Positions 1,412 to 56,945 of a stretch of DNA of 64,000 nucleotides are shown here, one piece after another. Origin of the DNA: Octopus vulgaris (lineage: Eukaryota). Each line of letters opens with the position of its first letter. Within the stretch, counting starts at the first letter, position 1. Made by a program: the position numbers and the translations under genes. Location: the NCBI GenBank assembly GCA_951406725.2, contig OX597815.1, positions 121,334,001-121,398,000 of the forward strand, read 5' to 3'. The notes under the pieces are model-generated. The model searched no databases and had not been told where the DNA came from. It worked only from the letters and a program-made list of their open reading frames with translations.

Positions 1412-1496
1412 TTAATTACAGCCGTTTCTAACGAATTTTTTAATAGATCAATGAGTACATTATATCAATATAAAAAAGCCTTTTCTTCAGATGAAT
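1412..1496 (-). ncRNA. Degenerate type I hammerhead ribozyme at the 3' end of a PLE remnant
   Basis: Minus strand: ttcat-CTGAAGA-(~55 nt stem II region)-GAAACGGCTGTA-attaa. Stem III is near-palindromic (ACGGCTGT) and stem I ttcat/attaa pairs at 4 of 5 positions. Confidence 0.6.
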
Positions 1497-1511
1497 ACAT
1501 GTATTTTGCAA

Positions 1512-2645
1512 TCAAGGACATTTAAAAAAAAATTTAATCCATGGCACATACATATTTAGTGAATCCACGACTAGCCCTTGTAGGTACATCCCCTTTAAGT
1601 GATTAGCATAAGTCGGAGCAACTTTTGTCCTCACTGCAATCCCATTGCCATTGAAGTAAAAAGAATGGTTTTCCAGAATAAATTTTAATCCTTCAGCAAT
1701 GAAAATCTTTTCAGTTCTATCTGGAATTTCGTGAGGTAATTTCTGAGGCCAGAAAGTTATTGCCTCTAGTCTATATTGGCATGGGATTGTGGTAGAGAGG
1801 TTTACCACATCAAAAGATACAATAGTGGTATCATTGTTTATCGATTTTGGGAGGTAGTTTAACAGGTCCAGGTTGTCGCTTATGAGACTTGTATGTATTT
1901 TAAAATAGGTTTCAGTAATATATCTAAAAAGTTACCGAGTCTGTGTGTTTCACAGTTCAGGCTTGCTATGATTGGTCTAAATTTAAGGTCAATGCAACAT
2001 TGTATGTTTATGCAACTTGAAGTTGGTTCTTTACATGCATTCATAACAGTTTGATTCTTTTAAGAGACTGTAGAAGTAGCTTGTCTTGCAATCAAAATGA
2101 GTTAGGTAGTCACATGCTTTGTTTGTTAAACCACCTTTTTGATGTCTGTGAATGAGTGTGTCCATTTTAATCATTATCTTTGATATTTGGTAATTATGTA
2201 CCTTTTCATTGCGGGTCATATCTTGTAATATAGATAGTATATCTCCTTGTAGTGTTCAGTATCCACAATAACTATAACACTCCCCTTATCTGCTTCCTTA
2301 ATTATAATGTCTTTATAGATTTTCAGTTCATGTATAATATCCCATTCCTTTCAACTGATATTGTGCTTGATTTAAGGGTGTGGAAGTTCTTTGTAAGTGA
2401 AGGTAGATATAAAATCGCAAAATTTATCTAAAGCTTTATTCTTACCTTTTGTAGAATTGTATTTGCTCTTGTTTCTTACAATTGGTTCGTCCCTGTTTTC
2501 TTTATCATACAATTCCTCTGTTAGGTGTAGTTTTCTGCAGAACTGTGAAATATCATTTGGTATTTCATTGAAGTTAGGGTGCTGTAGTGCTGGGATAAAT
2601 TTTAGGCCTTTTGACAGTCAATCGTATCAGCCTTCACTTGTGATG
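1512..2645 (-). mobile_element. Penelope-like element reverse transcriptase remnant (pseudogenised)
   Basis: ORFs 1512-1808 and 2031-2219 plus flanks give SFDVVNLSTTIP, FILENHSFYFNG and GIAVRTKVAPTYAN (PLE GxAMGTKxAPxYAN motif), and ADKG and RPII-like motifs upstream. Many stops and frameshifts. Confidence 0.8.
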
Positions 2646-3248
2646 TGAAACATTGTCACTTGATACTAACTCATGGATGCAGCAGGAAACTTACAAAAAT
2701 TTCTATGACCAGTCATGTGACTATCCTCTACCAATCAAACCCTATTCAAAACATATACTAATTTGAGCCTTGAACTCCCTATAAATATAAGGCAAGCTTC
2801 AAACACTAATCACAGCAAAAAAGCTGCAACATAAAGTACATCTTTCTATTTCAAATATTTGAAAATCAGTGTAAACTGTGAAACAGGTTAAATCTTTAAA
2901 TATAATAATGAAAAATATTTTAAATATTCTCTGTGCATTTTCAACTTCTATATTTCTTTTATTTCTATCCATATGGAATAAAATAACTTGAAGGCACACT
3001 GGTAAAATGTTGCTCCTCTACTTGGAAACTTTACCTGTCATTGTGGTTTTGTGACGTGAAGCAAAGCAGGCCTTACCATCCACTCAAGGAAACACATAGT
3101 AAATGATCCACAAGCACTTGAGCCAACTGAGTCCTCAACTTGTTTTCTTTGCCAAAAGGTTTGCAAGGCACCAGAAGGCCTCAAGAGACATGTGCATGTC
3201 CATAGAAAATGATTACTGCTTTATTTGTCATTCACAAAAGAATCCATC

Positions 3249-3307
<59 letters not shown>

Positions 3308-3436
3308 ATGTATGTATGTATGTATGTATGTATGTATGTATGTATGTATGTATGTATGTATGTATGTATGTATGTGTGTATGTATGTAATGTATGTATGT
3401 TGTGTGTGTCTGTGTGTGTGTATTTGCATGGGTGTG

Positions 3437-3597
3437 TAATAAATAAAGGGGGGAAATTGCACCAGCAAATGCTAAAAATAAGAGACAAAATTAAATCTGA
3501 AAGCCACAAGAACACTAACCTTTTTATGGCTTTCAGAGTTAATTTTGACTCTTATTTTTAGCAATCACTGGTGCTATTTTGCAACCTTTATTTATTA
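3437..3597. repeat. Foldback inverted repeat (~75 bp arms, short loop)
   Basis: gctaaaaataagagacaaaattaaatctgaaagccac...tggctttcagagttaattttgactcttatttttagc, extending outward to aataaataaagg / cctttatttatt. Confidence 0.8.
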
Positions 3598-4249
3598 ATT
3601 CCTTTTTGGTTTTTAATTGCTAGTGAGCCACTTATACTACAATGTGTTTAATATGCTTTAATATATTAATATATCATTGTAGTATCTTTTTGTGTTGATT
3701 ATGTTGTCTGCACCACCTGTCTTCGTCTTTTGATTTTTTGTGAATTCTTCCCCATATATATTTAATGTTGACTGTTGAAAGAAAGAGTACTTGATACCAT
3801 TGGAGAGAGTAATTATATTTCATTTTGGTCCATCCTGTCTCTTACTAGTCTGACCTTGTGCAGCCACAAGCAAAGCTCAGAGTAGCAAGAATCTGAATCA
3901 ATCAAACAGAATATTGTGTGTGTGCATGTTTTCGTGTTTGTACCTTGCCACTGCTTGACAACTGGTGTTGGTTTATTTACATTCCCATAATTTAGATTTA
4001 AAAAATAAATACTGGAGTTGGATTGTTTGACTAAAGCCTCCAAAGAAGTACCCCAACATGGCTGCAGTCCAGTGACTGAAACAAATAAAAAAACAATAAA
4101 AGACAAAAAATATACAAATTTCTGCATAGTTCATAGATTCAAACATTGAAAGAGGATTATGTACAACATGCTAGTTTCCACATAAAACATCATCATCTGG
4201 TGTATAGACTCTAATGTTTAGTTGTGGCTTCTCATCAATATTGGATTCA

Positions 4250-5704: not shown

Positions 5705-5770
5705 GTCTTGTGAGTGGATTTGGTACACAGAAACTAAAAGAAGCCTGTTGCATATATATATATATATGAG

Positions 5771-6450
5771 CATATTTGCCAGTTAAATGTGACTAACCCT
5801 TAAGGGTGGACGCTACTGTATCTTTTAGCCCCAGGAAGACACCTCCTCTACCTGGCTATTGACACACTTTCTGTGCCCTATCAGTATTTGGAAAGGGAAG
5901 TCATCCTTCCCATCTTCAAACTGACGTGATACACACAGACCTGGGTTTCTGGATATTGACCCGTCATCAGCATTTGGCAATCATCGGTTGTTGATGTAAA
6001 GTGCTTTCCCGATGCAAATACATATATCCTTTTTCCAGTGACAATGTCATGCAGCTACTGTGTATACCTCGCTCAGAGATTTATTATTGCTTGTTTACAC
6101 TTTTTCGAGATCAGTGACTTTTCATCACTAGAAGAAGGATATATGTATTTGTATCGGGAAAGCACTTCACATCAACAACCGGTGATTGTCACATGCTGGT
6201 GATTGTCAATACTCAGAAACCCGGGTTCGTATGTATCACATCAGGTTGAAGATGGGAAGGATGACTTCCCTTTCCAAATACTGCTAGGGCACAGAAAGTG
6301 TGTCAATAGCCAGTTGGAGGAGGTGTCTTCCTGGGGATACAAACTACAGTAACATCCAACCTTAGGGGTTAGCCACATGTAAGTGGCAAATATACTTCAT
6401 GATGTTGTACAGCTACTGTGTGTACCTCACTCAGAGATTTATTATTGCTT
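5771..6450 (+). mobile_element. Non-coding HHR-bearing retrozyme-like element (~360 nt unit plus 5' inverted copy)
   Basis: 5771-6040 is the reverse complement of 6126-6395. cagctactgtgt..cagagatttattattgctt recurs at ~6052 and ~6410. HHR motifs lie at 5933-5975 (-) and 6191-6232 (+). Flanked by (TA)n inside a SINE. Confidence 0.8.
5933..5975 (-). ncRNA. Minimal type I hammerhead ribozyme
   Basis: aaatg-CTGATGA-cgggtcaatatcca-GAAACCCAGGTC-tgtgt. The partner copy at 6191-6232 has the palindromic stem III ACCCGGGT but CTGGTGA in the core. Confidence 0.75.
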
Positions 6451-7319
6451 ATATATATGTTTGTGTGTCTGTGTTTGCCCCACCTCCATCACTTGACAAC
6501 CGATGTTGGCATGTTTATGTCCCCATAACTTAGCAGTTTGGCAAAAGAGACCGATGGAATAAGTACTAGGCTTACAAAGAACGAGTCCTGAGGTCGATTT
6601 TCTTGAATAAAAGGTGGTGCTCAAGCATGGCCACAATCAGATGACGGAAACAAATAAAAAAAAAAAAGAAAAAGAATGTTTAGTGTTGGAAACAAGATCA
6701 TAGTTTCTTGATCTGTTCATTGTTAAAAAGGTTTGGAAGTGAACTACTGCCTCCTCTTTCTGGGATTTTCAATTCCAGCTAAGGTTTCTTGTTCAATTGA
6801 GGGAGGTTTATGATTATGAGCAATTAATCAACATCATCATCATCATCATCATCATCATCGTTTAACATCTGCCTTTCATGCTAGCATGAGTGGGATGGTT
6901 TCACAAGAGCCGGCCAGGCCAAAGCCTACTCTAAACTTCTGTGACTGTTTGGCAGGATTTTTACTACTGGATGCTCTTCCTAACACCAACCACTCAGCAG
7001 AGTAGACTTAGTACTTTTTACATGGCACAAGCACAGGCAAGGTCAGTTTTGACAAGTTTTTTACAGCTGGATGCCCTTCTGAACACCAACAACTTTACAA
7101 TGTGGACTACATGCTTTCAAGTGGCACCTGCACTGACAGGGTCACCAAGTACTTGCAAGACAAAAAAAAAGAAATTTTCAAGAGGGGAAAATTAGCTATA
7201 GTGCAGGCATAATTGTGTAATCAAGAAGCTTGCTTACCAACCACATTTTCTGCTTTATCTCTCTTGTGTAGCACCTTGGACAAGTGTCATTACCATAATC
7301 TCCATAATCTCTTGTGAAT

Positions 7320-10090: not shown

Positions 10091-10147
10091 ATATATATAT
10101 ATATGTATATATTAGAAGGTTTAGAGGTGATGTACAGGTATTATATA

Positions 10148-10380
10148 TTAGAAGAAATAAGGTACTCAGAAATCTGGATGGTTTTATATTTACAGATTTT
10201 TATTAATATGTCACATGTTTTTTATAAATCATATATTAACACTTGCATCTACTCTAGTGGAATCTGGAGAGTCTACTAGAGTAGATGCAAGCGCTAATAT
10301 AAGATTTATAAAAACATGTGACATATCAATAAAAATCTGTAAATATAAAACCATCCATATTTCTGAGTACCTTATTTCTT

Positions 10381-10385
<5 letters not shown>
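10148..10385 (+). mobile_element. Foldback element with ~110 bp arms centred on a degenerate minimal HHR
   Basis: Near-perfect palindrome between TA-rich flanks. The centre (10262-10298) reads at-CTGGAGA-gtctac taga gtagat-GCAA-GCGC-TA-at. Confidence 0.7.
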
Positions 10386-10465: not shown

Positions 10466-11688
10466 AATAGATGCTGCTGCATTTCAGGATAGTCATTTTT
10501 TCTTTCGCCAAAGAAACAAATGCACTATATATTTGTTCTTCACTTGTTTATTACTGTTCTTATTTTAACTCATGTTTATCGCCTGGAAATCTTTCGTCAC
10601 ACATCTGTGACCTCTTCAGCAACACTTTTCGTTTTTGTGTGTGCTCATACTCCACTTATTTCATTCTGCTCTTCTATGATGTGTATCCTTATGTGTGCAT
10701 GCATTTCTGTCTGTGTTTGTGTGTGCATGTGTGTGTGTGTGTGTGTGTGTATGCTTGTGTGTGTATCATTGTTCTTAGCAGTGTTTGTGTGTTCACCCAC
10801 AGTGTTGCCATCATAGTAGTTGTTGTTGTTATTGCCATCATTGTCACTGATGCTACTGCTGTTGCTGTTAGTCATGATATTTTTGCGGCCGTCCATAATG
10901 TCATTGTGTATGTGTTTGTGTGTGTTCACTTTGTATGTTGCTTGTATCCACGCCCTTCATATAGATATATTTATTTATTTATTTTGCCTATATTTCTTAT
11001 ATTTGTCACAGGTATGTGACAAATATATTTATCAATTTATTTATTTTTGCTTGTTTTTTATTTTTTTATTTTTTTATATTTATTTATCACTTTTTCTTAT
11101 ATATTTCACAGATATGTGCATATATGTCTATTGTGTGTGTATTATCCTGTTTGTATCTGTGTTTTATCTATAATTATTTTTCTTTTCTCTCTCTCTTCTT
11201 CTCCCTTCTATCTTTAGTCATGTGGTCTGGTGAGGTGATTGGTGCTGCTATTCCATTCATGTTTTCTATTTAGGCTCAGTCTGTCTACTGCTATGTGTGT
11301 AACTTCTGTGATCTAAGTGACATGTCAGTTCTATATAATGATAGGACAGCAACAGCACAGTGGAGTGAGGGGAAGGCCATACTGTTGCTAAGAACAATGA
11401 CACACACACAAGTATACACACATGCACACACACAAACACAGATGCAAACACATGTGCACATAAGGATACACATCATTGAGGAGCAAACGGGAGTAAGTGA
11501 AGCAAGAGCACGCATGAAAACAACAAGTGTTGCTGAAGAGATCACAGATGTGTGATGAAAGATTTCTGGGCAATGGACATGAGTTAAAATAAGAATAATA
11601 ATAGACAAGAGAAGGACAAATATATAGTGCATTTATTTATTTGACAAAAGAAAAAAACGACCATCCCAAAATACAACTGCATATATAG
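10466..11688. mobile_element. Older HHR-bearing non-coding element with ~320 bp diverged inverted arms
   Basis: ~10466-10800 is approximately the reverse complement of ~11375-11688. HHR motifs lie at 10581-10625 (-) and 11527-11570 (+). Confidence 0.75.
10581..10625 (-). ncRNA. Minimal type I hammerhead ribozyme
   Basis: gtgttg-CTGAAGA-g-GTCACA gatg TGTGAC-GAAA-GATT-TC-cag. The core is intact and stem II is a perfect 6 bp. Confidence 0.75.
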
Positions 11689-11691
11689 ATA

Positions 11692-11786: not shown

Positions 11787-11834
11787 GTATATACATATAT
11801 CTATCTATATATATATAGAGATAGATACAGGCAG

Positions 11835-12330
11835 TGGTGGCCAATGGAACCACCTCAATGAAAACACAAATAGTGAGTAGTATTCTACAGAGCACTGTCT
11901 TGGGACAACTGCTTTTCATAGTGGCCCTCTCAGATATGCCCTCAACTGCCTGGATAGCCACCCTTGCTAGGTATGCAGATACTATGGAAGTCTCACAGAA
12001 AATACAGACCCCCAGTGATGTTGCACACCTGCAACAGGAGTTGAACTCAATTTACAGATGGGCTGAGGATAATAGCATGCAGTTTAATGCTGAAAAACTC
12101 CAAGCCCTCTGCTGCCAGCATCCAAAACTGACTATAAAACTTACAGGGTACACTGGTCCACAGGGGATTTCAGTCTCAGAGCCTAAATCAGTGAGGGACT
12201 TGGGTTAAACATGAGTGATGATACCTCTTTCCAAGTGCACATTACCAGGATGGCAACAAATTGTAGACAACTAGTTGGATGGATTCTGAGAACGTTCAGA
12301 ACCAGAGAGAAGGAAACCATGATGGTCCTC
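11835..12330 (+). mobile_element. CR1/L2-group LINE RT fragment
   Basis: [50 protein letters not shown]; decayed. Confidence 0.85.
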
Positions 12331-16980: not shown

Positions 16981-18599
16981 AAACTCCTTCATATGAATCC
17001 ATTGAAATGTCTAACAACTTGCTGAATAAATTACTACATAGAAAAAAATATTTCCAAATATTTTATTCTATGATTCAAGTCTGCTGTCATTCCTGTAAGC
17101 AATTCTTATTTGACTATCAAGTTAGTACATGCTTCTTCCTCTCCTCTTACCACATATACATATGCCTATGGCTAATATTATATTTAAAACTTTACAGACA
17201 TGCACATATGACAAATTTCACATTTCACAGCAGTTATGTCATTAATGTTTTCCCTGAAGAGATGAGTGATATAAGTAGAGTGAAATTGCTACACTTAGAA
17301 ACAGAATCTAGACTAAGACATACCTGAAACTTATGTTCCATCTGCATTATAATAATTAAATATTTATGTCCACTGCAAAACCAGTCAATGTAATTGCAAT
17401 AGTAAATTATATATTTCCAGAAAGTAAATATATTTTCTGAACCAAATGTAATAAAACGCTCCTTGTGTGAAATACTTTCAGAACTTACAACACATTTAGT
17501 TCATCCGATTATGGCTATTTTATTTGTACTTTACATCCATTTTGCCCATGATATTATTATCAATATAATTATTGATGTTGGAAGTTTTACAAATTTAGCT
17601 GATTCTGAAAAGACCTTTATAGGAGAATATACAATCTAAGGCCTAATTCTCAAATCAGTTGGCTATTAAATTCTTCCTTAACAATACAATGATTGGGTTT
17701 GGTTCCATGTTGTGAATGGATTTTTAGTTAGTATTACACTAAGTTTTATAATTCAGGATCTCTATCTCTGTAGTTTTATTTATATCAAATAAATAACCCA
17801 TTTGGTATAGGAGTACATTAAAATATTATAACCATTCAGTGTGTTAAGGAAATGTCACCTTGACAAAGACATTCCTATTTATCATGGCCAAGTTCAGAAA
17901 CACATTTAAAGAGCTTAAGTTTTAAGAATTTTTTCATAGTGACTGAGAATTAACTGATTGCTTTATGATATATAAGATAAGACAGTGATTCTGAATCTTT
18001 TTTATTTTCTGGTGTGATGGAGATTAAATAAAAAGAAAATTATTGGTTTACTTCACATAGAAAGTTTAAAAAATGAAGTTTTAAAGTGAAATATTAGAAA
18101 AAATATAGAGAAAAACTAATATCTACCTGTTTTATTAATCATGCTTCTGTGTAAAAAAAAAACTATTATAAATAACATACTTTTCACAACACCCAAATAT
18201 TAATATACATTTTTTAAAGCCTTAAATTCTATTTTTAAAAAGCCACCATGCCCCTTGATAATCATTACTGTGCATTAGTGCACAATAATGCTTCATTTGA
18301 GAACTACAAAAATTAGGTGTCAAGTGATTTGTGATAATGTTGTAATATTAAATATTATAAAGGTGATGAGCTGGCAGAATCATTAGCACACCAGACAAAA
18401 TGCTTAGCAGCATTTCTTCTAGTTTTATATTCTGAGTTCAGATTCTGCTGAGGTTGACGTTGCCATTCATCCTTTCAGGGTTGATAAACTAAGTACCACT
18501 TGAGCACTGGAGTCAGTGTAATTGACTAGCCCTCATCCTCAAAATTTCAAGCCTTGTGCCTATAGTAGAAAGAATCATCAAATATTACATTCTGTAAAG

Positions 18600-19465
18600 T
18601 AGAATAAAAAACTTCCGGAATTAAGACAGATACTACTTGAAAGAAAGGACTCATCTACACTAACAGAGAATGGAATGGAATGTGCCAAAGCAATAGATAC
18701 TAAAGAATTGCAAAAGGCCAAAAGCGGTTCAGATACACCCCAAACTCTGTCTTTTATTACAACTCACAACCCAAGTAAAACAGAAACATTCAGCATTATC
18801 CATCAGAACATTCTAAGAATGAAAAAAATCATTTGAGTCATGCAAAATAATCGAATCTAAAAGATGACAAAAATCCCCCCACCCCCAATGCTTACCAGTG
18901 CAAAACTACCAACTTCATACTCAATTCCAACAATTCAAAAGTGTAGCCACTCTAATTGTGGAACTTGTACCAATCTTATTGACAACACATCATATAAATT
19001 TAAATCAGGATAAGTTTTTATGGTGAAAAAACATTTTTCTTGTTCTTTAAAAAATTTGATATATACCTTCAAATGCATTGGAAGCAGTAAAGAATACAAT
19101 GAACATATCAAACACTTTAAAAATGAGATTAACAATTCATCAACAACAAATGCAAGATGCCTGGACTAGAAAAATCCCACTCAGTGCACATTTGGACACA
19201 TGCACAACAGCCAAATCTCATAAATTCCTAGTCTTCCCACTTTATCTATTACAGACCAAACACAAATAAATAAAGAGAGTTTGTTTATTAAAAACTAAAA
19301 GCCACAGCAGAACAGGCAATAAAACTATCATTAATATTCAATTTGCCATTTGCTATGGATGTTATCCATGGTTGTATTTTATATCCCTGCTGATGAAAAT
19401 GATTCATATCCCTCTTTTTAAGTTCATTAATTATACTTTGATTTTGATCATAGTAACTTTCAGTT
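18600..19465 (+). mobile_element. PLE remnant (linker, GIY-YIG endonuclease, 3' UTR with degenerate HHR)
   Basis: FITTHNP, CSHSNCGTC, KNLIYTFKC, LKMRLTIHQQQM..LSAHLDTC. 19387-19463 reads ctg-CTGATGA-aaatgat...atcata-GTAACTTT-cag. Confidence 0.7.
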
Positions 19466-19902
19466 GCCTTCATTTCTGAATGTCATGACATATCTACTGG
19501 AATAAAGTTTCGGCACAATCTTCTCACACAGCTGTCATATTACTATCCTCAACTAATCAATCTCTCCTTTAACTGATAGGAAACAGAGCCACATTCTCTC
19601 AATAAAAACAAATGATTTTGAAAACAATGGCTCGGAAAGATACAGTTTGTGACACACCTTCATATTCCTCATAATGTACACTTTTAAAAATCAACAAATC
19701 AACAGTTAAGCATGAATAAATATCCATATTTTAAAATTTAAATATATCTTTATGCATTCTCTATGCATTTTCAACTTCATTTATTTCTTCTAAACTACTA
19801 CTTGTTTGGATTAGCGACAATCCATATATGTATGTGTTTATATATACATATACGTATGTATGTATGCATGCATATATATATGTGTGTGTGTATGTATGTA
19901 TG

Positions 19903-21426: not shown

Positions 21427-21680
21427 AGTTCTATATTTAAGAGATGATGAATTATGTACATTATTTACATTATTTACATTTGATGGATATTTGCCCTTGT
21501 CTTGTTTGTTGTTAACACGACATTTCAGTTGATATACCCTCCAGCCTTTTTCTATATTTCTGATGAAGAGCTCCACTCGAAACATGAAATCATCTTTCTT
21601 TTCTTTCCTTTCCTGAGCATCGACTAACACTGTACTTATTTCACGTCCTTGCGCTGTAGTTTTTTCTTGTTTGTTCATAT
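21427..21680. mobile_element. Back-to-back fragments of two HHR-bearing repeat families
   Basis: 21427-21546 (-) is the 3' part of the 24050/33230 family (ggctggagggtatatcaact-GAAATGTC-gtgtt). 21556-21590 (+) reads attt-CTGATGA-a-gag ctcca ctc-GAAACATG-aaat, the same family as 44999. Confidence 0.7.
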
Positions 21681-21689
21681 TTAGATTGA

Positions 21690-21727
<38 letters not shown>

Positions 21728-35873: not shown

Positions 35874-36208
35874 AAATTAAATTTGTTATAATAGTGAAAA
35901 ATATTATATAATCATATACATATAAATATAAAAATATAAAAATGTAAAATATAAAAACTTATACATCATAATGCTACACTTGTATAATATAATACACATT
36001 TGTACAAAAAGGAAGGTAAACAGAACAAAATAAAACAAAATATATAACAGTGTATATATAATATTAATAAGTACCGATATCATACATATTTAGCTAATAG
36101 TTTTTTTTATAAAAAAAAGGGCTAACACATATGGAGATGAAAAATAATAATTAAATCCGTGGTACAGTTCATAAAATTCTAAAGCTATAAAAGTTAATAA
36201 AAATTACT

Positions 36209-36265
<57 letters not shown>

Positions 36266-37977
36266 TAAAAAATAATAAAAATAGATACAGTTAAGTTATC
36301 ACCAAGTCCATCCTTTCAAGATCGAAATAACTATGAGTTAAGAAATGCTGACCACTAGGTAAAGAAAATTTAGATTAATTCGATTGGCTATTGGTTTGAA
36401 ATTTAAATCACAAAAGAAAATTATACGGTTGGTTAGTCAGGGAACGCCAATATTCACACACGCATCTACAGATCAATCGCACATACACACATAGTTATAT
36501 GTATATACATACACTTATACATATACATAATCATAAGCAACAACTAACACTTAGATAAACAAAAGGGAAGCAACTATGCTAACATTTAAGTCCTTCAAAA
36601 TTATAACTGAGCCTCAATAACAAAAAAAGAACCATCCATGCATTCTATAAAATATTTAATTAAGATATAAATGTATTTTTAAATATCAGTATGTTACTAA
36701 TTCAGATAATTATTTCATGGGTAACTTAAAATTTATAACACCGGTTTGTTGCAGAGTAAACATACGGTTGTTAGGTTTATCGTAAGTTTGTTATGATTTA
36801 AAGTACGCTAAATTATAAAATATAAAATATAAAATATATTAATTTAGATATTATAAATAAGTCACTTATTAACTTAATAAATATAGTGCCAAATATACCA
36901 GTTTAGGCAATAAAAATAGAGGGGAAGTATTAATGTAAACGCTTATGAGAACATCACAGAAATTTTAAATAAATTTTATATTATAAAGACTTAAGATGAA
37001 AAGAGATAAAATAAATAAAAAGGAATAAATACGAAGGAATAAATACGGTTATACACATAATTATAAGTACAAACTAGTATATATGTATTCATATATTATT
37101 AAAATTAAATAAAAATAAATGATAGATATGTATGTATAAAACTACACCAGTATAAGTAAATAAGTAAAGAATAAATAGGTAACAAATTAAATGACTTGAT
37201 ATGTATGTAAACATCCACACTTAAATAGGCAAATAAATAAATAAATAGAAGACTAGATGCAAATATTGATAATATTACAATAAAATGGGAAATAAATAAA
37301 AATAAATAAAGTGAATATATATATTTTATATTGTTGAAAGTAAATATGTATGGAAGGATAGTTTAAAGTACAGATCCAGAGGACTATAGATATAAACTAA
37401 ATATATGAGGCTGGTAATAATTATAAAGCAAAATGCATGTAAATGAGAAAATGAAAAAAATGAAAAAGGTTTATCAGTGAATAGCATAAGATACAAATTA
37501 AGGTGAGTACAAAAAGACCAAATATATAATAAAAACCTTCCAAATCAGCACATACAAAAAACCTATAATCTCAACCTAAACCCACCAAACTCACAAAAGG
37601 CTCTCATATATTACATATTATACAATATCATTACATTATCCAGAGCTAGGTATCTAACCAAGATATACATATATACTATGCAATATACTATGCAATATTG
37701 GAAAACTTCAAAAATCACACATTACAAGGCAAATACCAAAATGAATATGTTATTTTATGTCATATTGCATTTCTCTTAAAAAACAAACAAAAACCCACAT
37801 ACAAAAACCAAGAAACCAATAATACTAGACACATCCATTAGTTATTATACAAATGTAGCTATAAAAATTATAAAATTATGAAATTTATAAATTGTATACT
37901 TTAGAATTATAGAAGACCACAGGTATATTTAGTTAAAGAAGGGAATTAAAAAATTATAATAGTGGAAGTGCTAAGTT

Positions 37978-39022
37978 CTATTTGAATCTAGAAAAGGTGA
38001 ACGGTAGCCTATGAATACAAAAGAAGTTTTTCTCATTAATGTTGTTAATAATTTGCCGACCCGCTTTAATAATGAAGAAAATTTCATTAATACATAGAGA
38101 GCATTTTTTATTTTTTCCATTATACACAGGTGCTGAAGTTAGTATTTTCCAGTTTAATCTAAAATCTAAGTTCTTACTTTTAAGTTCCCAAATATATGCA
38201 CTTAGCCCTGTAGAGTACATTCTATTTTTATTCCTAAAAGTATATCTATGATAATTCCATCTTTGTTTTATGCTATTCATAGTTGCCCCGATATACACCC
38301 TACTACTCAATTGTGTATCTACAGTGCATTGGTAAACTACCTCCTTCCTGAGGCATTGATTACCAAATACACATTTATTTTTATTTCTGCAATTACAAAG
38401 ATTAACAGAATGAGGAAATCTAAGATTGGACACCACCCCTATACTACTATTCACATTATAAGTGTTACAATTGTTATCATCATCCAAACCCAAAATCAAC
38501 GAATGAGTTAATTCCACATTATCGGCTATATTCCTATCACTAGTACTAGTATTGGTAGTAGTGGTATGATCTATTACATTTATATTATCTCTGACAGGTA
38601 TGGTGCACTCATTATTAGTAAGGAGGTTGCTCCCATTTGTTCCAAGAAAATTTCTATTCCTATTATTAATGAAGAGGGGCAAGTTTTCCTGGTCTAAATT
38701 CAATTTTCTATCCTTATAGAAGTGATCCAGTTTCTTGTTATTAAAAGAGGAGATGATGGTGGCTAGATTATGAGTAATGCTATATCCCACTCTAACAGTA
38801 CCGTTGTTAATTAAAGGACTAAATTTATTCCTATCCTTACCAAAATGCCTAAAAATAATATTATGCAAAGCTCTCACTATGTTTGTTTTAATCTGCATTG
38901 CATACGGGATAATCAACCAAAGAGTATCCTTATCAGAATTAGGATTGCCTATAGAATTAATGTTATTTGTAAAAATCCTATTCGTAGACCAACTCATAGG
39001 ATTACTATTCTTACCACTGTCA
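37978..39022 (-). pseudogene. Inverted duplicate of the PLE linker plus GIY-YIG coding segment
   Basis: Identical to the 40420-41613 protein from DSGKNSNP onward. The ORF-track N-terminus (up to 39090) is antisense of the RT start. Confidence 0.9.
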
Positions 39023-41613
39023 AAGTCTCCTCCACCAAATATACATCTAGACAATTTTGAACAAGAACTATGGGAGACTGTAAAAAACATAAAATTTAGA
39101 AATCATCCTTTAAGATATAACCCGCACAATATTAATTTTAATTAGAACTCTCAAAGGTAAGAGCGGCATTCTAACACATTCTGACAAAACTAACAACATC
39201 TACAACATTGACATTACTGCATATCATGATCTTCTACACAAGGAAATAACCAAGAAATACAAAGTAGTACCTTCTAGTACACTTAGAAAACTGAACCTGG
39301 AGATCAGAGAAATCATATTTGACTACTACCTAGAAGAAAAAACGGAACCCTACACCCCATCCAGACCGAGAATTACACTAAAGGATCATAAAGAGAATTT
39401 TCTTGGAAACACACAGGTCAGATTAATTTGCCCCACTAAATCTGACTTAGGCAGACTAAGTAAACTCATTCTAGATAAATATCTACCCACCATCCGCAAT
39501 AAAATCAAACTAAACCTTTGGAAGAATACTCAGGGTGCTTTGGATTGGTTTTCTGCCATTAAGGTCTGTGACAGTAACAACTTTAGCTATAATAGAAATA
39601 AATTTATACAATTCGATATACAGAATTATTACACTTCAATTAACCCTATTATATTAAATAAGTCCTTAATTTTTGCTAGAAAACACACTAAATTAAGTAT
39701 GGGGGAGATTAAGGTTATACTAACAGCCAGGAAAACTTTAATAGAGTTTGATAATAAACTTTGGGCTAGAAAGGACACACCCAACTTGTTCGATATCACA
39801 ATGGGATCGCCGGACTCAGCGGAGGTGACTGATCTAGTTGGGATGTATCTATTAGATAACTTTAGTAGGGAATTCCCTGAATTAAAAGGCGGATTATACA
39901 GGGATGACGCCTTATTTTGTGTTAGGAATACATCAAATAGGAGATTAGATCTTCTGAAAAAAAGAATAAACAAATTTTTTAAAAGCTTCGGCCTATCCAT
40001 TATCATTGAAAGTGAAAATTATTCTGCTAATTATTTAGATGTTAATTGTAACATTACTAATGGTTTACATGAACCCTATATTAAACCTAATTCTAACCTA
40101 ATATACATTAACCGTTCTAGTAATCACCCCCTCAAATTAAAAATGCACTAGTGCGTAGCATTAGTCAAAGAATTTCTAGTTTATCCTCAAACGAGGAAAT
40201 TTTTAACAAACACTGTGATAGATACAATGCAGCATTACTTAAGGCAGGATATAAAAGTAAGATTTGGTTTATACCTAAGGGGAACCCCCTAATGGAGGTA
40301 GAACTATCAAGAACAACACAAATAGATTTAGGATAATCAACAATATACATAAGAATAGTAAAAACAGAATATATGATAACACCTATAATAAATGTAGAAG
40401 TGACGTTAACCTTGGAAAGGTGAACGGTAGCTCAAATAGATCTAAACATACGAGTAGTAGTAGTAATATTAATAATAATATACGAATTAAAACTTATGGT
40501 AGACATGATAATGGTAAAGTTTACTTGCGCAATAACCATGGTAATATTGATATAGATAGACATAACAATGACAGTGGTAAGAATAGTAATCCTATGAGTT
40601 GGTCTACGAATAGGATTTTTACAAATAACATTAATTCTATAGGCAATCCTAATTCTGATAAGGATACTCTTTGGTTGATTATCCCGTATGCAATGCAGAT
40701 TAAAACAAACATAGTGAGAGCTTTGCATAATATTATTTTTAGGCATTTTGGTAAGGATAGGAATAAATTTAGTCCTTTAATTAACAACGGTACTGTTAGA
40801 GTGGGATATAGCATTACTCATAATCTAGCCACCATCATCTCCTCTTTTAATAACAAGAAACTGGATCACTTCTATAAGGATAGAAAATTGAATTTAGACC
40901 AGGAAAACTTGCCCCTCTTCATTAATAATAGGAATAGAAATTTTCTTGGAACAAATGGGAGCAACCTCCTTACTAATAATGAGTGCACCATACCTGTCAG
41001 AGATAATATAAATGTAATAGATCATACCACTACTACCAATACTAGTACTAGTGATAGGAATATAGCCGATAATGTGGAATTAACTCATTCGTTGATTTTG
41101 GGTTTGGATGATGATAACAATTGTAACACTTATAATGTGAATAGTAGTATAGGGGTGGTGTCCAATCTTAGATTTCCTCATTCTGTTAATCTTTGTAATT
41201 GCAGAAATAAAAATAAATGTGTATTTGGTAATCAATGCCTCAGGAAGGAGGTAGTTTACCAATGCACTGTAGATACACAATTGAGTAGTAGAGTGTATAT
41301 CGGGGCAACTATGAATAGCATAAAACAAAGATGGAATTATCATAGATATACTTTTAGGAATAAAAATAGAATGTACTCTACAGGGCTAAGTGCATATATT
41401 TGGGAACTTAAAAGTAAGAACTTAGATTTTAGATTAAACTGGAAAATACTAACTTCAGCACCTGTGTATAATGGAAAAAATAAAAAATGCTCTCTATGTA
41501 TTAATGAAATTTTCTTCATTATTAAAGCGGGTCGGCAAATTATTAACAACATTAATGAGAAAAACTTCTTTTGTATTCATAGGCTACCGTTCACCTTTTC
41601 TAGATTCAAATAG
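39023..41613 (+). CDS. PLE polyprotein (N-terminally truncated): RT, Asn-rich linker and GIY-YIG endonuclease, with three apparent frameshifts
   Basis: SDKTNNIY, RITLKDHKENF..VRLICP, FIQFDIQNYYTSI, FDITMGSPDSAEVTDLVG, GLYRDD, NYLDV, SNHP, CNCRNKNKC, VVY..VYIG..KQRWNYH, CSLCINE. Frame changes near 39130, 40130 and 40285. Confidence 0.9.
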
Positions 41614-43322
41614 AACTTAGCACTTCCACTATTATCAATTTTTTAATTCCCTTCTTTAACTAAATATACCTGTGGTCTTCTATAATTCTAAAGTATACAA
41701 TTTATAAATTTCATAATTTTATAATTTTTATAGCTACATTTGTATAATAACTAATTGGATGTGTCTAGTATTATTGGTTTCTTGGTTTTTGTATGTGGGT
41801 TTTTGTTTGCTTTTTTAAGAGAAATGCAATATGACATAAAATAACATATTCATTTTGGTATTTGCCTTGTAATGTGTGATTTTTGAAGTTTTCCAATATT
41901 GCATAGTATATTGCATAGTATATATGTATATCTTGGTTAGATACCTAGCTCTGGATAATGTAATGATATTGTATAATATGTAATATATGAGAGCCTTTTG
42001 TGAGTTTGGTGGGTTTAGGTTGAGATTATGGTTTTTTGTATGTGCTGATTTGGAAGGTTTTTATTATATATTTGGTCTTTTTGTACTCACCTTAATTTGT
42101 ATCTTATGCTATTCACTGATAAACCTTTTTCATTTTTTTCATTTTCTCATTTACATGCATTTTGCTTTATAATTATTACCAGCCTCATATATTTAGTTTA
42201 TATCTATAGTCCTCTGGATCTGTACTTTAAACTATCCTTCCATACATATTTACTTTCAACAATATAAAATATATATATTCACTTTATTTATTTTTATTTA
42301 TTTCCCATTTTATTGTAATATTATCAATATTTGCATCTAGTCTTCTATTTATTTATTTATTTGCCTATTTAAGTGTGATGTTTACATACATATCAAGTCA
42401 TCTAATTTGTTACCTATTTATTCTTTACTTATTTACTTATACTGGTGTAGTTTTATACATACATATCTATCATTTATTTTTATTTAATTTTAATAATATA
42501 TGAATACATATATACTAGTTTGTACTTATAATTATGTGTATAACCGTATTTATTCCTTCGTATTTATTCCTTTTTATTTATTTTATCTCTTTTCATCTTA
42601 AGTCTTTATAATATAAAATTTATTTAAAATTTCTGTGATGTTCTCATAAGCGTTTACATTAATACTTCCCCTTATATTTTTATTGCCTAAACTGGTATAT
42701 TTTGGCACTATATTTATTAAGTTAATAAGTGACTTATTTATAATATTTAAATTAATATATATTTTATATTTTATATTTTATAATTTAGCGTACTTAAAAT
42801 CATAACAAACTTACGATAAACCTAACAACCGTATGTTTACTCTGCAACAAACCGGTGTTATAAATTTTAAGTTACCCATGAAATAATTATCTGAATTAGT
42901 AACATACTGATATTTAAAAATATATTTATATCTTAATTAAATATTTTATAGAATGCATGGATGGTTCTTTTTTTGTTATTGAGGCTCAGTTATAATTTTG
43001 AAGGACTAAATGTTAGCATAGTTGCTTCCCTTTTGTTTATCTAAGTGCTAGTTGTTGCTTGTGATTATGTATGTGTATAAGTGTATGTATATACATATAA
43101 CTATGTGTGTATGTGCGATTGATCTGTAGATGCGTGTGTGAATATTGGCGTTCCCTGACTAACCAACCGTATAATTTTCTTTTGTGATTTAAATTTCAAA
43201 CCAATAGCCAATCGAATTAATCTAAATTTTCTTTACCTAGTGGTCAGCATTTCTTAACTCATAGTTATTTCGATCTTGAAAGGATGGACTTGGTGCTAAC
43301 TTAACTGTATCTATTTTTATTA

Positions 43323-43392
<70 letters not shown>

Positions 43393-43730
43393 AGTAATTT
43401 TTATTAACTTTTATAGCTTTAGAATTTTATGAACTGTACCACGGATTTAATTATTATTTTTTTCATCTCCATATGTGTTAGCCCTTTTTTTTTTAAAAAA
43501 AACTATTAGCTAAATATGTATAATATCGGTACTTATTAATATTAATATATACACTGTTATATATTTTGTTTTATTTTGTTCTGTTTACCTTCCTTTTTGT
43601 ACAAATGTGTATTATATTATATAAGTGTAGCATTATGATGTATAAGTTTTTATATTTTACATTTTTATATTTTTATATTTATATGTATATGATTATATAA
43701 TATTTTTCACTATTATAACAAATTTAATTT

Positions 43731-43846
43731 AATTCTCTGAAGAGGCCGTGGGGCATCTTTGTTAATGCCTCATTTATACCTGCCTTTATGGCTTATAGGT
43801 TAAATGAGGTATGACTGTCCTCACTGCCGAAACAGCTGTCAGTTTT
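43731..43846 (+). ncRNA. Type I hammerhead ribozyme with extended stem II in the PLE 3' UTR
   Basis: CTGAAGA (43737), ggccgtggggca...tgtcctcactgcc, GAAA (43829), palindromic ACAGCTGT, GUC triplet (43838-43840). Stem I is imperfect. Confidence 0.8.
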
Positions 43847-44069
43847 GATTTATTTGCATATTATATTTGAAATTTTTTACTTATATCTCTTTATCTTTTT
43901 ACTTTTACTATTACTGTATATCTCATTTCATTTTATATATTGCCTTTACTCATATGTAATGGTGTATTAAAGTATGGATTGAGTATCATCAGATAGTTGA
44001 TGTTTTACTGATTTAAGTATGTTTCTCCATTCTCTAATTTTGTATTATATATATATATATATATGTGTG

Positions 44070-44400: not shown

Positions 44401-44929
44401 TATACATACATATACACATATATATATATAGGGATATATAGAGATAGAAAAACCAAATATATTCAAAAGATAAACACATATGTACAAGTATGTAGATATT
44501 TATATATATATTGTTAAATAAACTTACTTTTACATGTATAAAAGATACAGGAGAAAATAAAGATAACGAGAGAGGGCATAGATTTTTTACTTGACATCTG
44601 TTTCTTGGAGTTTAAAATTACATAACAGTGATAATGTTTATAATAAGCAAATGAAATGTGCAAAATGTCATAGCTATGCAACCGTTTCACATTGTAGTGT
44701 GAGAGATTATATATTAGCTAATAATCCATTTTATATGGGGATAAAAAAATAAATTTAATATAGGCGCAGGAGTGGCTGCATGGTAAGTAACTTATTTACC
44801 AACCATATGCTTCTGGGTTCAATCCCACTGTGTAGCACTTTGGGTAAGTGTCTTCTTCTATTGCCTCAAGCTGACCAAAGCCTTGTGAGTGGATTTGGTA
44901 GACAGAAACCGAAAGAAGCACGTTGTATA

Positions 44930-45088
44930 AATAACCACATGTGAATTGTTGGCAATTTTTTTTTTCCTCTGTCTTCCTTTTTTATTGGACTTTCCTCTGT
45001 TTCTGAAGAAGAGCTTTGCTCAAAGCATTTAAACCATCTTTCTTTCCTTCCCTGTTTTTTTTGTATTTGTTCTTCGTATTTTGGGATT

Positions 45089-45090
<2 letters not shown>
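44930..45090 (+). mobile_element. Short repeat with degenerate minimal HHR inserted in the TA-rich middle of a SINE
   Basis: 44999-45034 reads gttt-CTGAAGA-a-gagc ttt gctc-AAAG cattt-aaac. It shares the downstream catctttct with the 21556 copy. Confidence 0.6.
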
Positions 45091-45132
<42 letters not shown>

Positions 45133-53269: not shown

Positions 53270-53610
53270 GGGTAAAAGCCCCCATCATTCATGAACAACC
53301 ATGGGATTGCACCTAGAAAGTTACCCTCCGAGGCACAACTCCAAGCAAGGTTGTTTATGGAAGACCAGCAGTTGCTCATGCATACCAGCCTCCCCTCTCC
53401 ATACCACCAATGTTATCCAAGGGAAAAGCAATGGCTGTTACAGCCTGGCACCAGTGATGTCGCAACTCATTTCTACAGATGAGTGAACTGGAGCAACGTT
53501 AAATAAAGTGTCTTGCTCAAGAACACAACAGACAGCCAAGTCTGGAAATCAAACTCACTATCTCCCGATTGTGAGCCCTATGCTCTAACCACTGAGCTAT
53601 GCATCTTCAC
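53270..53610 (-). mobile_element. tRNA-derived SINE family D
   Basis: Minus strand gcatagctcagtggttagagc...gagtttgatttcc...ttcttgagcaagacacttta. Related heads at ~58868 (+) and ~62590 (-). Confidence 0.7.
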
Positions 53611-56025
53611 TATTATTATCACATATACCTTGATATTTCAAGTCATTAACCTTATTACTACCAAACCAACCTGAGACCACCCTTAGCTCTATGATACAAA
53701 CATTCCATTTTGAAGTGATCTAAATTAAAATCTTCCATCAAAATGTCATGTTAATTCATATCCCAAACTGCTGCTTGCTTAATAATGATAAATTCATTTT
53801 ACTAAAATCTTCATTATTTTTTAAATTACTTGAAACAATGACAGTCTATTTCAACAGAAATATGGTAACAAAAGAGTTAATGTTTATGAAATTAACACTA
53901 TTTACTACACTAGAGCTAAGAATAAAAAAGCAATTATCTTTTTTATGATTTTTATTGTCAGCCTAAACTCTCAGGACTCATTGCTGCAATTTTGGCCTTA
54001 TAAAAGACTTTCATGACTTTGGTGGGATTTAAAAACCAATAATTAAAAGCAATAAAAGAATTCTTTATTGCACACTATTTTCTACTTCTCAACTAAGTAC
54101 ATTATGTCTTAACCTTATAATTAGCTTTCTAGTTATGACCACATTTTAACTCCCTTCTCCTCCTCTTCCTCATCACCCTAAAGGTTGTTGGTAGCAACAG
54201 CAGCAGCAGTGATGCTACTACTGCCACTACTACCACGGCCACCATAACCACTGTTGTTATCATCACCATCACCAAGTTCACTATCACTATCATCGTTATG
54301 AAATCCTACTATTATTACCAGCATATCACTATCTCTTCCTGTGAGCTCCTTTTTTGTCTTATCTGTTAGATTCTAATTCCTGAAATTTTACTTCACCACT
54401 TCTTCCTGTGTCTTTCTCTGTCTTCTAAAATATGTACCTTCATTTGTCAGCACTCAAGGTTTTTCACCCTTCACTCATTACTCATATGTATTAACAATCC
54501 CAGTATATTCATGTTTCCTATATACTTCAGGTGTTGTTTCAAATGCTCTGTTGCTCACTCTTTCAGCTCCTTTGTGATTCAGTTTTTATTCACTTATAAA
54601 AAAAAAAACTCATTTAGATTACTTTTACACATCCAGTAATTTCTACCAAAGTGATTTCTCTTCAACCTTCATAAGTTTGTTATACTCTACTGTAGCAGGT
54701 CTCTGCCACAGTTTGAGCCCAGACTGTTTTCTTTCAATTAAAAGGTTACCACAAACAAAAACTAAACCTTTTAAAACTGAATGATGTCATGAAATAACTA
54801 ATAAGTGATATCATTATTCAATCAGCCAAAACTCTGACTGTTGTTTAAGAAAAATTTCCTAATTGTAAACCAAAAGGTCCAGTGTTCAAATCAACATATA
54901 GACCTGGTATATCACTACTGCTTCATCAGCATACAACCCCAGACTACTATATGCTTCATACACTCTGCTATTGTTGCTGAACAAGATAATAGCTCTCTAA
55001 ATGTCTTCCTCTTTTGTACACTTATTCTTCACCTTCACTACAATCACCTCCTGCATTAATTATTTCCTCCAGTCCACACTGTAAAGTAGTTGGCATTTGG
55101 AAGGGTATCTAGCTGTAAAAAAAACCATGCCAAAACAGACACTGAAGCTTGGAGCAGACTTCTACCAAGCCAGCTCCTGTTAAACTGTCCAATTCATGCC
55201 AGTATGAAAAGCAAACATTAAATGATGATGAGAGTGATGGCGATGATGATGATCATCATCATGATGATGACGACGACGACGACAATGACGATGATGGCAA
55301 CGATGACGAAAACAATGATGATGGTGATAATGATGATGACGATGATGATGACGAGAGGGAGGAGGGGGAGAAGAGGGAGGAGGAGACAAACTATGGACTA
55401 TATTTCATGGACTGTCTGAATCAGTTATATAGGTTTTTCCCACTGCTGGTGGTTATTATTTCATCAACCATAATATCATATGCGATACCACGGTTCTCCA
55501 TCAATTTGTCAGAAACTCTGCTGCACTTTTCTGTACCTACTGTTTGCATGCAGTGTGTAGTTTGAATTCCATCCTACTCTCTTCTACCTATACATTGAAC
55601 AAAAATCATTTCACAAAGAAAACTGATTTAGCTTTCCAACCACATGGTTTCAGGTTCAGTCCTGTTGTATGGTAACTTCTACTATAGCCCTGAGCTAACC
55701 AAAACCTTATGAATGGATTTGGTAATGGAAACTGAAAGAAGCCTGTCACATGCATATATTTGTATTTGGGTTTTTCTTTTACTTGTTTCAGCCATTTGAC
55801 TGTGGCCATGCTGGAGCACATCCTTTAGTTGAACAAATCAACCCCAGGACTTATTCTTTGTATACCTAGTACTTATTCTGTTGGACACTTTTGCCAAACT
55901 GCTAAGTTATGGAGACGTAAACATACCAACATCAGTTGTCAAGCAATGGTGGAGGGGGACAAACACAGACAAACAAGCATACATACACACACACACATAT
56001 ATATGTGCATACGTATGTATATATG

Positions 56026-56065
<40 letters not shown>

Positions 56066-56084
56066 TACATACATATATATATAA

Positions 56085-56945
56085 AGAGAGAGAAGAATAC
56101 AGTGTACGTTCAAACACAAAAGAGATACCCGAAGAATAGGATATCTGACTCACTAGAAAGAGCAGTTAAAACTCCAAGCCACCAATTGTTGTAATTCCGA
56201 AAGTGATTGAAAAATAAAAATTTTTACCTTAATCCTATACCCTGCAAGGTTTCTGCAGACTTACATACATATTGAAATAAGATAAATTCAGTCTATATCT
56301 GGCACTGCTTCTTCAGTAGGTTGCCAGGATCTAACACATAGACAAGGAGCAATAATAACCCGCCACATGTCTATAGGTTCTAATTTTTCGAATCTATCGT
56401 GCAGATGCAGAACTCAACCAGCACTAAATAAATAAATTGTCAATTTTCTTCCAGAATTAGCCAAAAACCATTTTATCATTAATTAAAATCTTAAGGTAGC
56501 AAGAATATTCATCGAAAAATTCTTAGTTACCAGTGGTCTAGCAAGAAAGAAAAAATTAGTCAATAGACTATATATTATTCAGAGAAGAATACAGTGTACA
56601 TTCAAACACAAAAGAGATACCCAAAGAATAGGATATCTGACTTGTTAGAAAGAGCAGGTTAAAACTCCAAGCCATCATTTGTAATTCGAAAGTGATTGAA
56701 AAATAAAAACTTTTACCTTAATCATAGACCCTGCAAGGTTTCTGCAGAATTACAACAATTGGTGGCTTGGAGTTTTAACTGCTCTTTCTAGCGAGTCAGA
56801 TATCCTATTCTTCGGGTATCTCTTTTGTGTTTGAACGTACACTGTATTCTTCTCTGAATAATATATAGTCTATTGACTAATTTTTTCCTTTTTGCTAGAC
56901 CACTGGTAACTAAGAATTTTTCGATGAATATTCTTGCTATTTTAA
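56085..56945 (-). mobile_element. Retrozyme-like element: ~490 nt unit in partial tandem plus a 5' inverted segment
   Basis: agagaagaatacagtgtac at 56089 and 56581; 56749-56945 is inverted. Full HHR at 56234-56320 (-) and an HHR 3' half at 56723-56748. Flanked by (TA)n inside a SINE. Confidence 0.85.
56234..56320 (-). ncRNA. Type I hammerhead ribozyme
   Basis: ccta-CTGAAGA-agcag..(46 nt)..ctgca-GAAA-CCTTGCAGGG-TA-tagg. Perfect 4-bp stem I, near-palindromic stem III, GUA triplet (GUC in the second copy). Confidence 0.8.

Follow-up and report, generated by a model that had tools for sequence, protein, structure and literature searches.

The window analysed here is a 64,000-nucleotide stretch of the 2.8-Gb Octopus vulgaris genome (contig OX597815.1, positions 121,334,001–121,398,000, forward strand), in which repeats with hammerhead ribozyme motifs lie among coding Penelope-like elements (PLEs) and their remnants. 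A preliminary description of this stretch had recognised six mutually unrelated non-coding families, which are named here after their window positions as A (23931/33232/21427), B (21556/44999), C (5771), D (10148), E (10466) and F (56085). Repeat copies with a layout like that of a type I hammerhead were present at all of these places, and the CUGANGA sites and the palindromes that had been quoted (ACGU, AGCGCU, ACCCGGGU, AGAUUU and ACCUUGCAGGGU) were found in the window copies. Core substitutions had also been noted in some copies, and all window copies other than that at 56316 (−) were indeed mutated. Our analysis points to two kinds of Penelope-type insertion, a reading that we consider probable: families A, B, D and E are hammerhead-motif 3′ ends of coding PLEs, and families C and F are tandem units of 359 and ~493 nt that lack an open reading frame (ORF) and were likely copied in trans. 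The window copies are located as follows.

23931–24214, + strand: family A copy, with an inverted tail fragment (23931–23946) and a direct arm without the tail.
23947–24024, + strand: head of this copy with A and B boxes, followed by (AAT)n and a body with a minimal hammerhead.
33232–33492, + strand: family A insertion, with an inverted arm that includes the tail (33232–33380) and a direct arm without it (33362–33491).
21427–21548, − strand: family A copy, truncated at its 5′ end inside the hammerhead, tail present, head to head with a family B copy.
21549–21692, + strand: family B copy (77% to the B majority sequence), 5′-truncated, with a damaged hammerhead at 21560 and ending in (TA)n.
44927–45093, + strand: family B copy with a damaged hammerhead at 45003 and an internal deletion, ending in (TA)n.
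10106–10385, + strand: family D, the last ~150 nt of a Neptune-type PLE 3′ untranslated region (UTR) in inverted and direct orientation, with a hammerhead-like motif.
10468–11691, + strand: family E, with an inverted arm (10468–11334), a direct arm (11366–11691) and hammerheads at 10619 (−) and 11533 (+).
5769–6455, + strand: family C, with an inverted arm (5769–6049) and a direct unit (6064–6421) followed by the start of the next unit.
56085–56945, − strand: family F, an ORF-less unit of ~493 nt in partial tandem (56090–56536, 56582–56752) with an inverted arm (56747–56945), between (TA)n tracts.

The contiguity of families A, B, D and E with reverse transcriptase (RT)/GIY-YIG frames was observed directly. 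The A unit consists of a 78-nt tRNA-like head, (AAT)n, a hammerhead body and a tail of 25–32 nt, and at four loci (L301, L307, L321 and L322) a Poseidon-type ORF runs directly into the head. When 15 Poseidon RT copies were chosen by the RT protein alone, 10 ended in an A unit; five copies were also read upstream, where an inverted A unit was present on the 5′ side in four and a tandem parent with a direct upstream pseudo-long terminal repeat (pseudo-LTR) in none. Family A is thus the 3′ UTR/pseudo-LTR of a Poseidon-type PLE. A Neptune RT lying beside A at L002 was rejected as its parent (1/30 loci), and the treatment of A as a free-standing short interspersed nuclear element (SINE) was dropped once the coding parents had been found, as was that of B as a free-standing element of 205 nt. 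For family B, a unit of its subfamily B2 is followed by a Neptune-type RT, a linker and GIY-YIG (L501/L504, C5:71755358), with a second B2 match 5,969 bp further on; in a tandem Neptune-type PLE of 5,969 bp, this subfamily forms the pseudo-LTR. An upstream extension defining a long form of B is shared by nine of 46 5′ ends, and a sister end with 66% similarity sits on another Neptune-type family.

Families D and E are 3′ UTR fragments of autonomous elements. A cysteine linker and GIY-YIG, a UTR of ~1.3 kb with internal repeats and then the D end succeed one another at L288 and L290, and L281 has the same coding part, which was thus found in 3 of 25 loci selected by the UTR. The inverted arm of E in the window corresponds to about 860 nt of the 3′ UTR of its parent, a coding PLE with a linker plus C-terminal GIY-YIG, whose coding region lies within 1.5 kb upstream, across a long UTR, in 6/30 loci; its RT active site was recovered at L241 together with an inverted 3′ arm. 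Pfam searches of nine frames yielded little, namely GIY-YIG with an E-value of 6e-4 and an unrelated RT. Because families A, B, D and E continue into PLE ORFs, they are not non-coding, and the picture of mutually unrelated non-coding families holds for C and F only. That such copies might be only the 3′ UTR fragments of autonomous PLEs had been named beforehand as an outcome that would overturn it; this is what was found for D and E, and it applies in part to A and B, which are pseudo-LTRs of coding PLEs with an over-represented short form and a fixed start.

Families C and F have a different organisation, and their unit lengths and circular permutation were likewise observed directly. The 3′ tail of C equals its 5′ head with a period of 358–359 nt, giving an ORF-less, circularly permuted unit of 359 nt of which both hammerhead copies in the window are mutated; the corresponding period in F is about 490–497 nt. 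No same-strand PLE frame was found upstream at any of 30 loci for C or of 30 loci for F. The F hammerhead at 56316 has a 56-nt stem II region and a 12-nt palindromic stem III. The insertions end in (TA)n at 21/30 (C) and 27/30 (F) loci, and (TA)n downstream, which had been reported for several copies, was found in 21–27 of 30 loci for each of B (44999), C and F. The other architectural features previously attributed to most copies fared unevenly: a 5′ inverted copy occurred in 17/30 loci for A (23931), 11/30 for C and 18/30 for F but in 0/30 for B (44999), and partial tandems occurred in 18/30 loci for F and 6/30 for C.

Covariation was examined in a C clan of eight sequences from five subfamilies. 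Both partners differ in 7/13 of the pairs, one such change being that of C3-G8 to U3-A8; the covariation score was reached by 0/500 shuffles and was far lower in slid controls. Stem covariation, proposed at the outset as a check, is thus present in this clan. In dimers, the hammerhead fold of F is the cofold minimum (−70.7 kcal/mol), and that of C (−23.9 kcal/mol) lies within 4 kcal/mol of its minimum (−27.6 kcal/mol). Families C and F are retrozyme-like units that PLE enzymes likely copied in trans, and it is to these two alone that the proposed mobilisation of non-coding RNAs in trans is likely to apply. A relative of C with 66% similarity forms a near-perfect 359-nt tandem array in L181:2300–4520 (G000:C1:20002300–20004520), with canonical minimal hammerheads (five direct strict matches at 359-nt spacing and two inverted), which from its sequence is the best candidate here for an active retrozyme. 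Another C relative stands in an array at L231, with a period of 362 nt.

The abundance of hammerheads was estimated by applying a strict minimal-hammerhead descriptor to 60 unselected 10-kb stretches at round positions (600 kb) and to 10 block-shuffled versions of them. It returned 29 matches in 17 of the 60 stretches and a single match in the 10 shuffled versions, and chance is therefore excluded at the genome level. By rough scaling from the 600-kb sample, which arrays inflate, the genome may hold roughly 100,000 intact minimal hammerheads. All six families are high-copy, with 1,123–3,794 first-look candidates each (these are not copy numbers), and were represented in the sample by 4 (A), 14 (B), 3 (C), 1 (D), 2 (E) and 2 (F) sites. 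Further hammerhead families were observed in the sample at L182, L204, L205, L212, L214, L231, L234, L235 and L238, some with a U3-A8 core and some with stem II regions of 48–58 nt; their periods include 362 nt (L231), 535 nt (L235) and 1335 nt (L212). In the window, only 56316 (−) passed the strict descriptor, and 43737 passed a relaxed one with a 2-bp stem I. An earlier strict scan demanding a fully paired stem II gave no match in the window, and an Rfam scan gave microsatellite artefacts and no hammerhead family among the matches listed (150 of 181). Minimum free energy folding of monomers was uninformative for seven stretches except for stem II at 43737 (z −4.2); L062 and L046, in which the motif was missed, were ignored.

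Motif quality differed among families. Among the 30 best genomic copies per family, picked by likeness to the mutated window copies, the core nucleotides were intact in 23 (A), 14 (B, 44999), 28 (C), 0 (D), 23 (E) and 29 (F). The core CUGANGA/GAAA/UH with stems I and II and a palindromic stem III is present in the majority sequences of A, C and F, and the core layout also in B1 (with the stem III CpG restored), in E (with a bulged stem I), in the family at 1412 and at 43737 (with its 2-bp stem I). The usual G10.1-C11.1 closing pair of stem II is present in A, B and E after one extra nucleotide and is absent beside the core in C (C.A) and F (A.A). In D, GCAA replaces GAAA in 13 of 17 further segments and stem I has only two base pairs, so that D fails as a canonical hammerhead.

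The window also contains coding PLEs and PLE remnants, three of which (1412, 19387 and 43731) had been noted as carrying similar motifs.

35391–44048, + strand: young Hydra-motif PLE, with a 3.5-kb inverted arm (35556–39022, 99% identical) that has the longer end and a direct arm (39023–44048).
39114–40151 and 40279–41613, + strand: RT and GIY-YIG of this element, with one frame break between them.
43735–43842, + strand: hammerhead of this element; its stem II region measures 85 nt (z −4.2) and its stem I 2 bp.
1411–2620, − strand: broken Neptune-type RT remnant, followed by a hammerhead (1411–1496) that is well formed in the majority of 15 loci.
18590–19470, + strand: old Neptune-type linker/GIY-YIG remnant, with only the CUGAUGA half-core at 19390.
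25565–27435 and 28388–29371, − strand: two further PLE remnants, both broken, one Hydra-type and the other Penelope/Poseidon-type; downstream of them no hammerhead was found.

The motif at 43731 is the 3′ end of this 8.6-kb inverted-plus-direct insertion, which fits the Hydra clade by motif (DKT, a CxCX5C linker, a C-terminal endonuclease (EN), a hammerhead and a (TA)n target). The claim that coding PLEs carry similar motifs was borne out at 43737 under the relaxed descriptor and at 1412 in the majority of 15 loci, where the upstream RT was found only at the window's own locus; it did not hold at 19387, since the GAAA half is absent from an alignment of 15 old loci. It is very improbable that all six families are independent non-coding ribozyme RNAs moved in trans, plausibly by the 43731 element. 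All six are high-copy and have PLE-type architecture at least in part, and the layout of F, with its long stem II and palindromic stem III, is common to Hydra-type ends, which long stem II variants (54–85 nt) accompany; the resemblance is in layout only. However, BLAST found nothing in common between the 3′ end of the 43731 element and C, F or the other short units tested, and self-BLAST of the whole window gave no match of it to the other families either. Moreover, its 40 best copies are 100% identical over 301 nt, with several pairs 5.6–6.3 kb apart in tandem or inverted orientation, whereas in B, C and F identity to the majority sequence is 86–97% among the 30 best copies; the 43731 element is therefore younger. 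Families A, B, D and E, moreover, each adjoin PLE ORFs of their own, and the six-family model is already refuted as regards D and E and, in so far as they were taken for separate non-coding families, A and B.

Several other observations concern the repeat content of the window and the genome. By motif, at least three PLE clades have left pieces in the window. When another Hydra-type EN served as protein query, 11,596 first-look candidates were returned, which makes this ‘minor’ clade an abundant one here. Two dispersed, abundant repeat families of SINE size are also present (31938–32764, 18359, 33727 and 48693; 21197, 35122, 44760, 45417 and 58610), one of which occurs in a 284-nt partial tandem, and RT fragments of the non-PLE, long interspersed nuclear element (LINE) type lie at 11825–12208 and 29971–30444 (+), the first with a weak RVT_1 match.

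The short copies of family A raise the question of how they arose. In the copy at 23931, the hammerhead core at 24110 has one change, and a 12-bp target duplication flanks the insertion (23919–23930 and 24215–24226); both hammerheads of the insertion at 33232 are damaged, and its target duplication is 9 bp long (33223–33231 and 33493–33501). Target duplications of at least 8 nt (8–14 nt) were found at 12 of the 17 loci with both ends defined, compared with 11/272 mismatched pairs. The direct 3′ ends of A fall at 156–162 (without the tail) in 11/30 copies and at 185–187 (with the tail) in 18/30, with one in between, and loci with both arms usually have the tail on one arm only. With its one-end tail, 5′ inversions and 8–14-bp target duplications, family A behaves like a PLE-driven SINE, and the postulated link with the Penelope machinery is here stronger than the preliminary description could make it. 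Two features of tRNA-derived SINEs are also recognisable, namely a tRNA-related 5′ head with canonical box spacing and a 3′ end common with the autonomous partner. Pieces of A were observed inside or beside B copies in three places (window 21427–21692, L036 and L210), which suggests that A inserts into T-rich parts of B.

The resemblance of the head to a tRNA gene favours the interpretation of A as a true SINE-like parasite, in which RNA polymerase III (Pol III) would start at the head of solo copies, a short RNA would span the hammerhead and the tail, and the Poseidon protein would copy it in trans; we place this close to an even chance, though slightly below it. The A box lies at +13 and the B box at +56 (0/50,000 shuffles pass), the head best matches the tRNA-Arg genes of this genome among eight tRNA loci scored (z 7.7–7.8; 0/1000 shuffles), and a TTTT run is absent from the head and body. 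Against it, the Rfam tRNA model gave 15.8 bits on one A copy, below the cut-off of 29 as with a degenerate head, and no match at the gathering score in 20 loci, and ARAGORN detected the head only at threshold 65 and reported no tRNA in the window.

Sharp 5′ ends were observed directly in both A, at the tRNA-like head, and B. Among 36 head-containing A segments outside the set selected for extension, 20 reach +5, of which 15 stop at −3 to +5, and none passes −52; the 5′ ends of the 30 extension-selected copies scatter from −40 to beyond −440. The boundary lies ~5 nt before tRNA position 1, which we infer to be the point of Pol III initiation. It also falls within a 12-nt palindrome, by which fold-back could be favoured. 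The preferred start of B lies within the motif TCATTC, which we take to be initiator-like. The sharp A boundary is in line with initiation at the head, as is the summed contig depth in run X15, which by a rough measure was ~10 times higher over the A body than over the ORF end. RNA evidence for A comes from one raw run, of which ~6% was read and whose organism may not be O. vulgaris; no discrete short A RNA was found in it.

Alternatively, the short A and B copies might be by-products formed in cis, with the RT priming at the tail after the upstream pseudo-LTR of a tandem transcript and running off its 5′ end, or with fold-back at the 12-nt palindrome of A or (TA)n microhomology in B, so that no non-autonomous cycle would be needed. 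This route seems possible, if somewhat less than evenly likely. In the anole Poseidon element, the RT begins inside the RNA, immediately beyond the pseudo-LTR (Frangieh et al. 2024, PMC11167929), as such a route would have it. Moreover, B has a tandem parent, many A copies have their inversion junction at the start of the head, and 14 of 20 5′ ends of young B copies stop 1–5 nt upstream of the usual start, mostly beside (TA)n. It leaves unexplained why the A boundary lies where it does relative to tRNA position 1 and why the boxes have been retained. Furthermore, at least one solo A copy (L231) begins at the head, with unique flank and without an inversion, and the five Poseidon copies read upstream included no tandem parent. 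Coding and short A copies are similarly diverged, a point against the SINE-like reading, in which solo copies would propagate independently. We tentatively propose that A could be a SINE born inside Penelope, with a tRNA-Arg-like Pol III promoter in the Poseidon pseudo-LTR just 5′ of the hammerhead. With the same reserve, this pseudo-LTR of ~270 nt may propagate alone by means of the Penelope RT/GIY-YIG, to some ten thousand or more copies.

Successful families with non-canonical cores were noted at L456–L475 and L326–L345: the young and abundant B2 subfamily, in which the top matches are 96–100% identical and the core is CCGACGA, and a related Neptune-type end whose majority sequence reads CUGUGGA.

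A possible mechanism for both kinds of insertion can be outlined after the anole Poseidon element (PMC11167929). The RT/GIY-YIG protein would bind RNA near the pseudo-LTR/ORF junction and nick AT-rich or (TA)n DNA, and reverse transcription would begin at one of two sites ~25–32 nt apart that bound the tail; a second priming would yield the inverted arm. D and E copies would be ordinary 5′ truncations, and the short A and B copies would derive from RNAs started at a promoter inside the pseudo-LTR, which in A is a predicted Pol III promoter and in B resembles a Pol II initiator. For C and F, dimeric hammerheads might cut multimeric transcripts, whose products may be circularised before reverse transcription yields partial tandems, both cleavage and circularisation being putative.

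Several observations weigh against this two-part interpretation of the families. Several majority cores are non-canonical, with C.A or A.A at 10.1-11.1 (C, F) and GCAA (D); the core of the commonest B subfamily is CCGA and that of a B relative CUGUGGA, and the dimeric hammerhead fold of B lies 14 kcal/mol above the cofold minimum. The covariation count in the C clan comes from few, related sequences. No coding partner of C or F was found among 52 EN remnants or 50 Hydra-type ends. One weak C-like match among the PLE ends examined was read as a separate insertion and not as a partner. In the RNA run, the 7,180 reads on A came from both strands and 81% of them continue into unlike flanks, and there was no pile-up of read starts or ends on A, nor any at the cleavage site. 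The clade names used here were assigned from motifs (in part those of Craig et al. 2021, PMC8557442) and not from a tree. Ribozyme mutants of the anole element still insert in vitro (PMC11167929), and one of nine Xenopus retrozyme dimers was cleaved (Li, Clavereau & Pollet 2026, bioRxiv 10.64898/2026.07.22.740005).

In a further reading, the hammerheads would be mostly non-catalytic relics or protein-binding folds, with C and F as ribozyme-independent PLE deletion derivatives or local satellites that need only a tail and an RT-binding site. The non-canonical cores, the dispensability of the ribozyme in vitro and the low activity reported for metazoan minimal hammerheads (PMC4209133) are consistent with this explanation. 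We nevertheless consider it unlikely, as compensatory changes occur in stems I and II and at the C3-G8 pair across the C clan and complete motifs are strongly enriched over shuffles.

Comparison with known systems places most of these results in an established context. Minimal hammerheads, solo or inverted, have been reported in thousands per metazoan genome and explained as probably deriving from truncated PLEs (Cervera & de la Pena 2014, PMC4209133). The octopus motifs share with those pseudo-LTR hammerheads the extra nucleotide after A9, the palindromic stem III, the U3-A8 variant and the multitude of consensus families; no cephalopod is named in the available part of that paper, whereas here the coding parents of four families were traced. 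Retrozymes of 170–400 nt are known from coral, mussel and axolotl, with PLEs proposed as their mobilisers (Cervera & de la Pena 2020, PMC7229834; neither ‘octopus’ nor ‘cephalopod’ occurs in its available text), and animal retrozymes have recently been interpreted as non-autonomous PLE derivatives (bioRxiv 10.64898/2026.07.22.740005). Like metazoan non-LTR retrozymes, for which a pseudo-LTR origin has been proposed, C and F are ORF-less tandem units of a few hundred nucleotides with type I hammerheads. They differ in having minimal instead of canonical hammerheads; most copies are dispersed, as monomers or in partial tandem, and lie in (TA)n with an inverted arm of the PLE type, and F, at ~493 nt, exceeds the 170–400-nt range. 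Partial tandems, the inverted 5′-truncated arm and the one-end tail are shared with the PLE clades of Craig et al. (2021, PMC8557442), in which linker-bearing clades target (TA)n, as here, and non-autonomous derivatives such as Chlamys MRC1 are known; the MRC1-type clade mostly lacks canonical hammerheads, and octopus appears in the available sections only for Naiad remnants.

Family A resembles the anole Poseidon element PAc in its AT-rich target and in the hammerhead near the pseudo-LTR end (PMC11167929). The tail is optional and 30–40 bp long in PAc and 25–32 nt long in A, usually at one end only; the tRNA-like head of A has no counterpart in the available description of PAc. With Schistosoma SM-alpha/Sj-alpha, A shares the combination of a Pol III-type promoter and a hammerhead in a short retroposon (PMC6765202). 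However, SM-alpha needs tandems because its promoter is placed 3′ in the unit left by cleavage, and no partner RT is named in the available text, whereas the A head lies 5′ of the hammerhead and both form the 3′ end of an identified Poseidon-type ORF. A is also comparable with Helenus, Ajax and Cassandra, terminal-repeat retrotransposons in miniature (TRIMs) with a predicted Pol III promoter derived from small RNA in the terminal repeat (Kojima 2024, PMC10886601); these are LTR elements without ribozymes, of which A would be the Penelope-side counterpart. Among cephalopods, 235 Rfam hammerhead-1 matches were reported for the giant squid genome (PMC6962438), and a 2026 repeat annotation of O. 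vulgaris, in whose main text ‘ribozyme’ does not occur, lists 893 recently active ‘unclassified SINE’ families (PMC13282606). The literature searched, to which Dfam, Repbase and supplements did not belong, contained no octopus account of these families and no tRNA-headed PLE pseudo-LTR. The general idea is already in print (PMC4209133, PMC7229834, bioRxiv 10.64898/2026.07.22.740005).

Most of the finding is known biology carried over to a new host, the octopus: hammerheads at the ends of PLEs, and retrozymes. The tRNA-headed and separately over-represented Poseidon pseudo-LTR is a variant for which no description was found in the literature searched. Some of the 893 ‘unclassified SINE’ families (PMC13282606) may be PLE ends. 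The near-identical Hydra-type family, the young B subfamily and the near-perfect 359-nt array provide young material for the question of what role the hammerhead plays in PLEs. If true, the reading of the tRNA-headed pseudo-LTR as a SINE would extend that concept to elements whose partner is a PLE rather than a LINE, and this one family would show how a non-autonomous element arises from a pseudo-LTR. Such a SINE would live beside ~100,000 intact minimal hammerheads, including several young retrozyme arrays.

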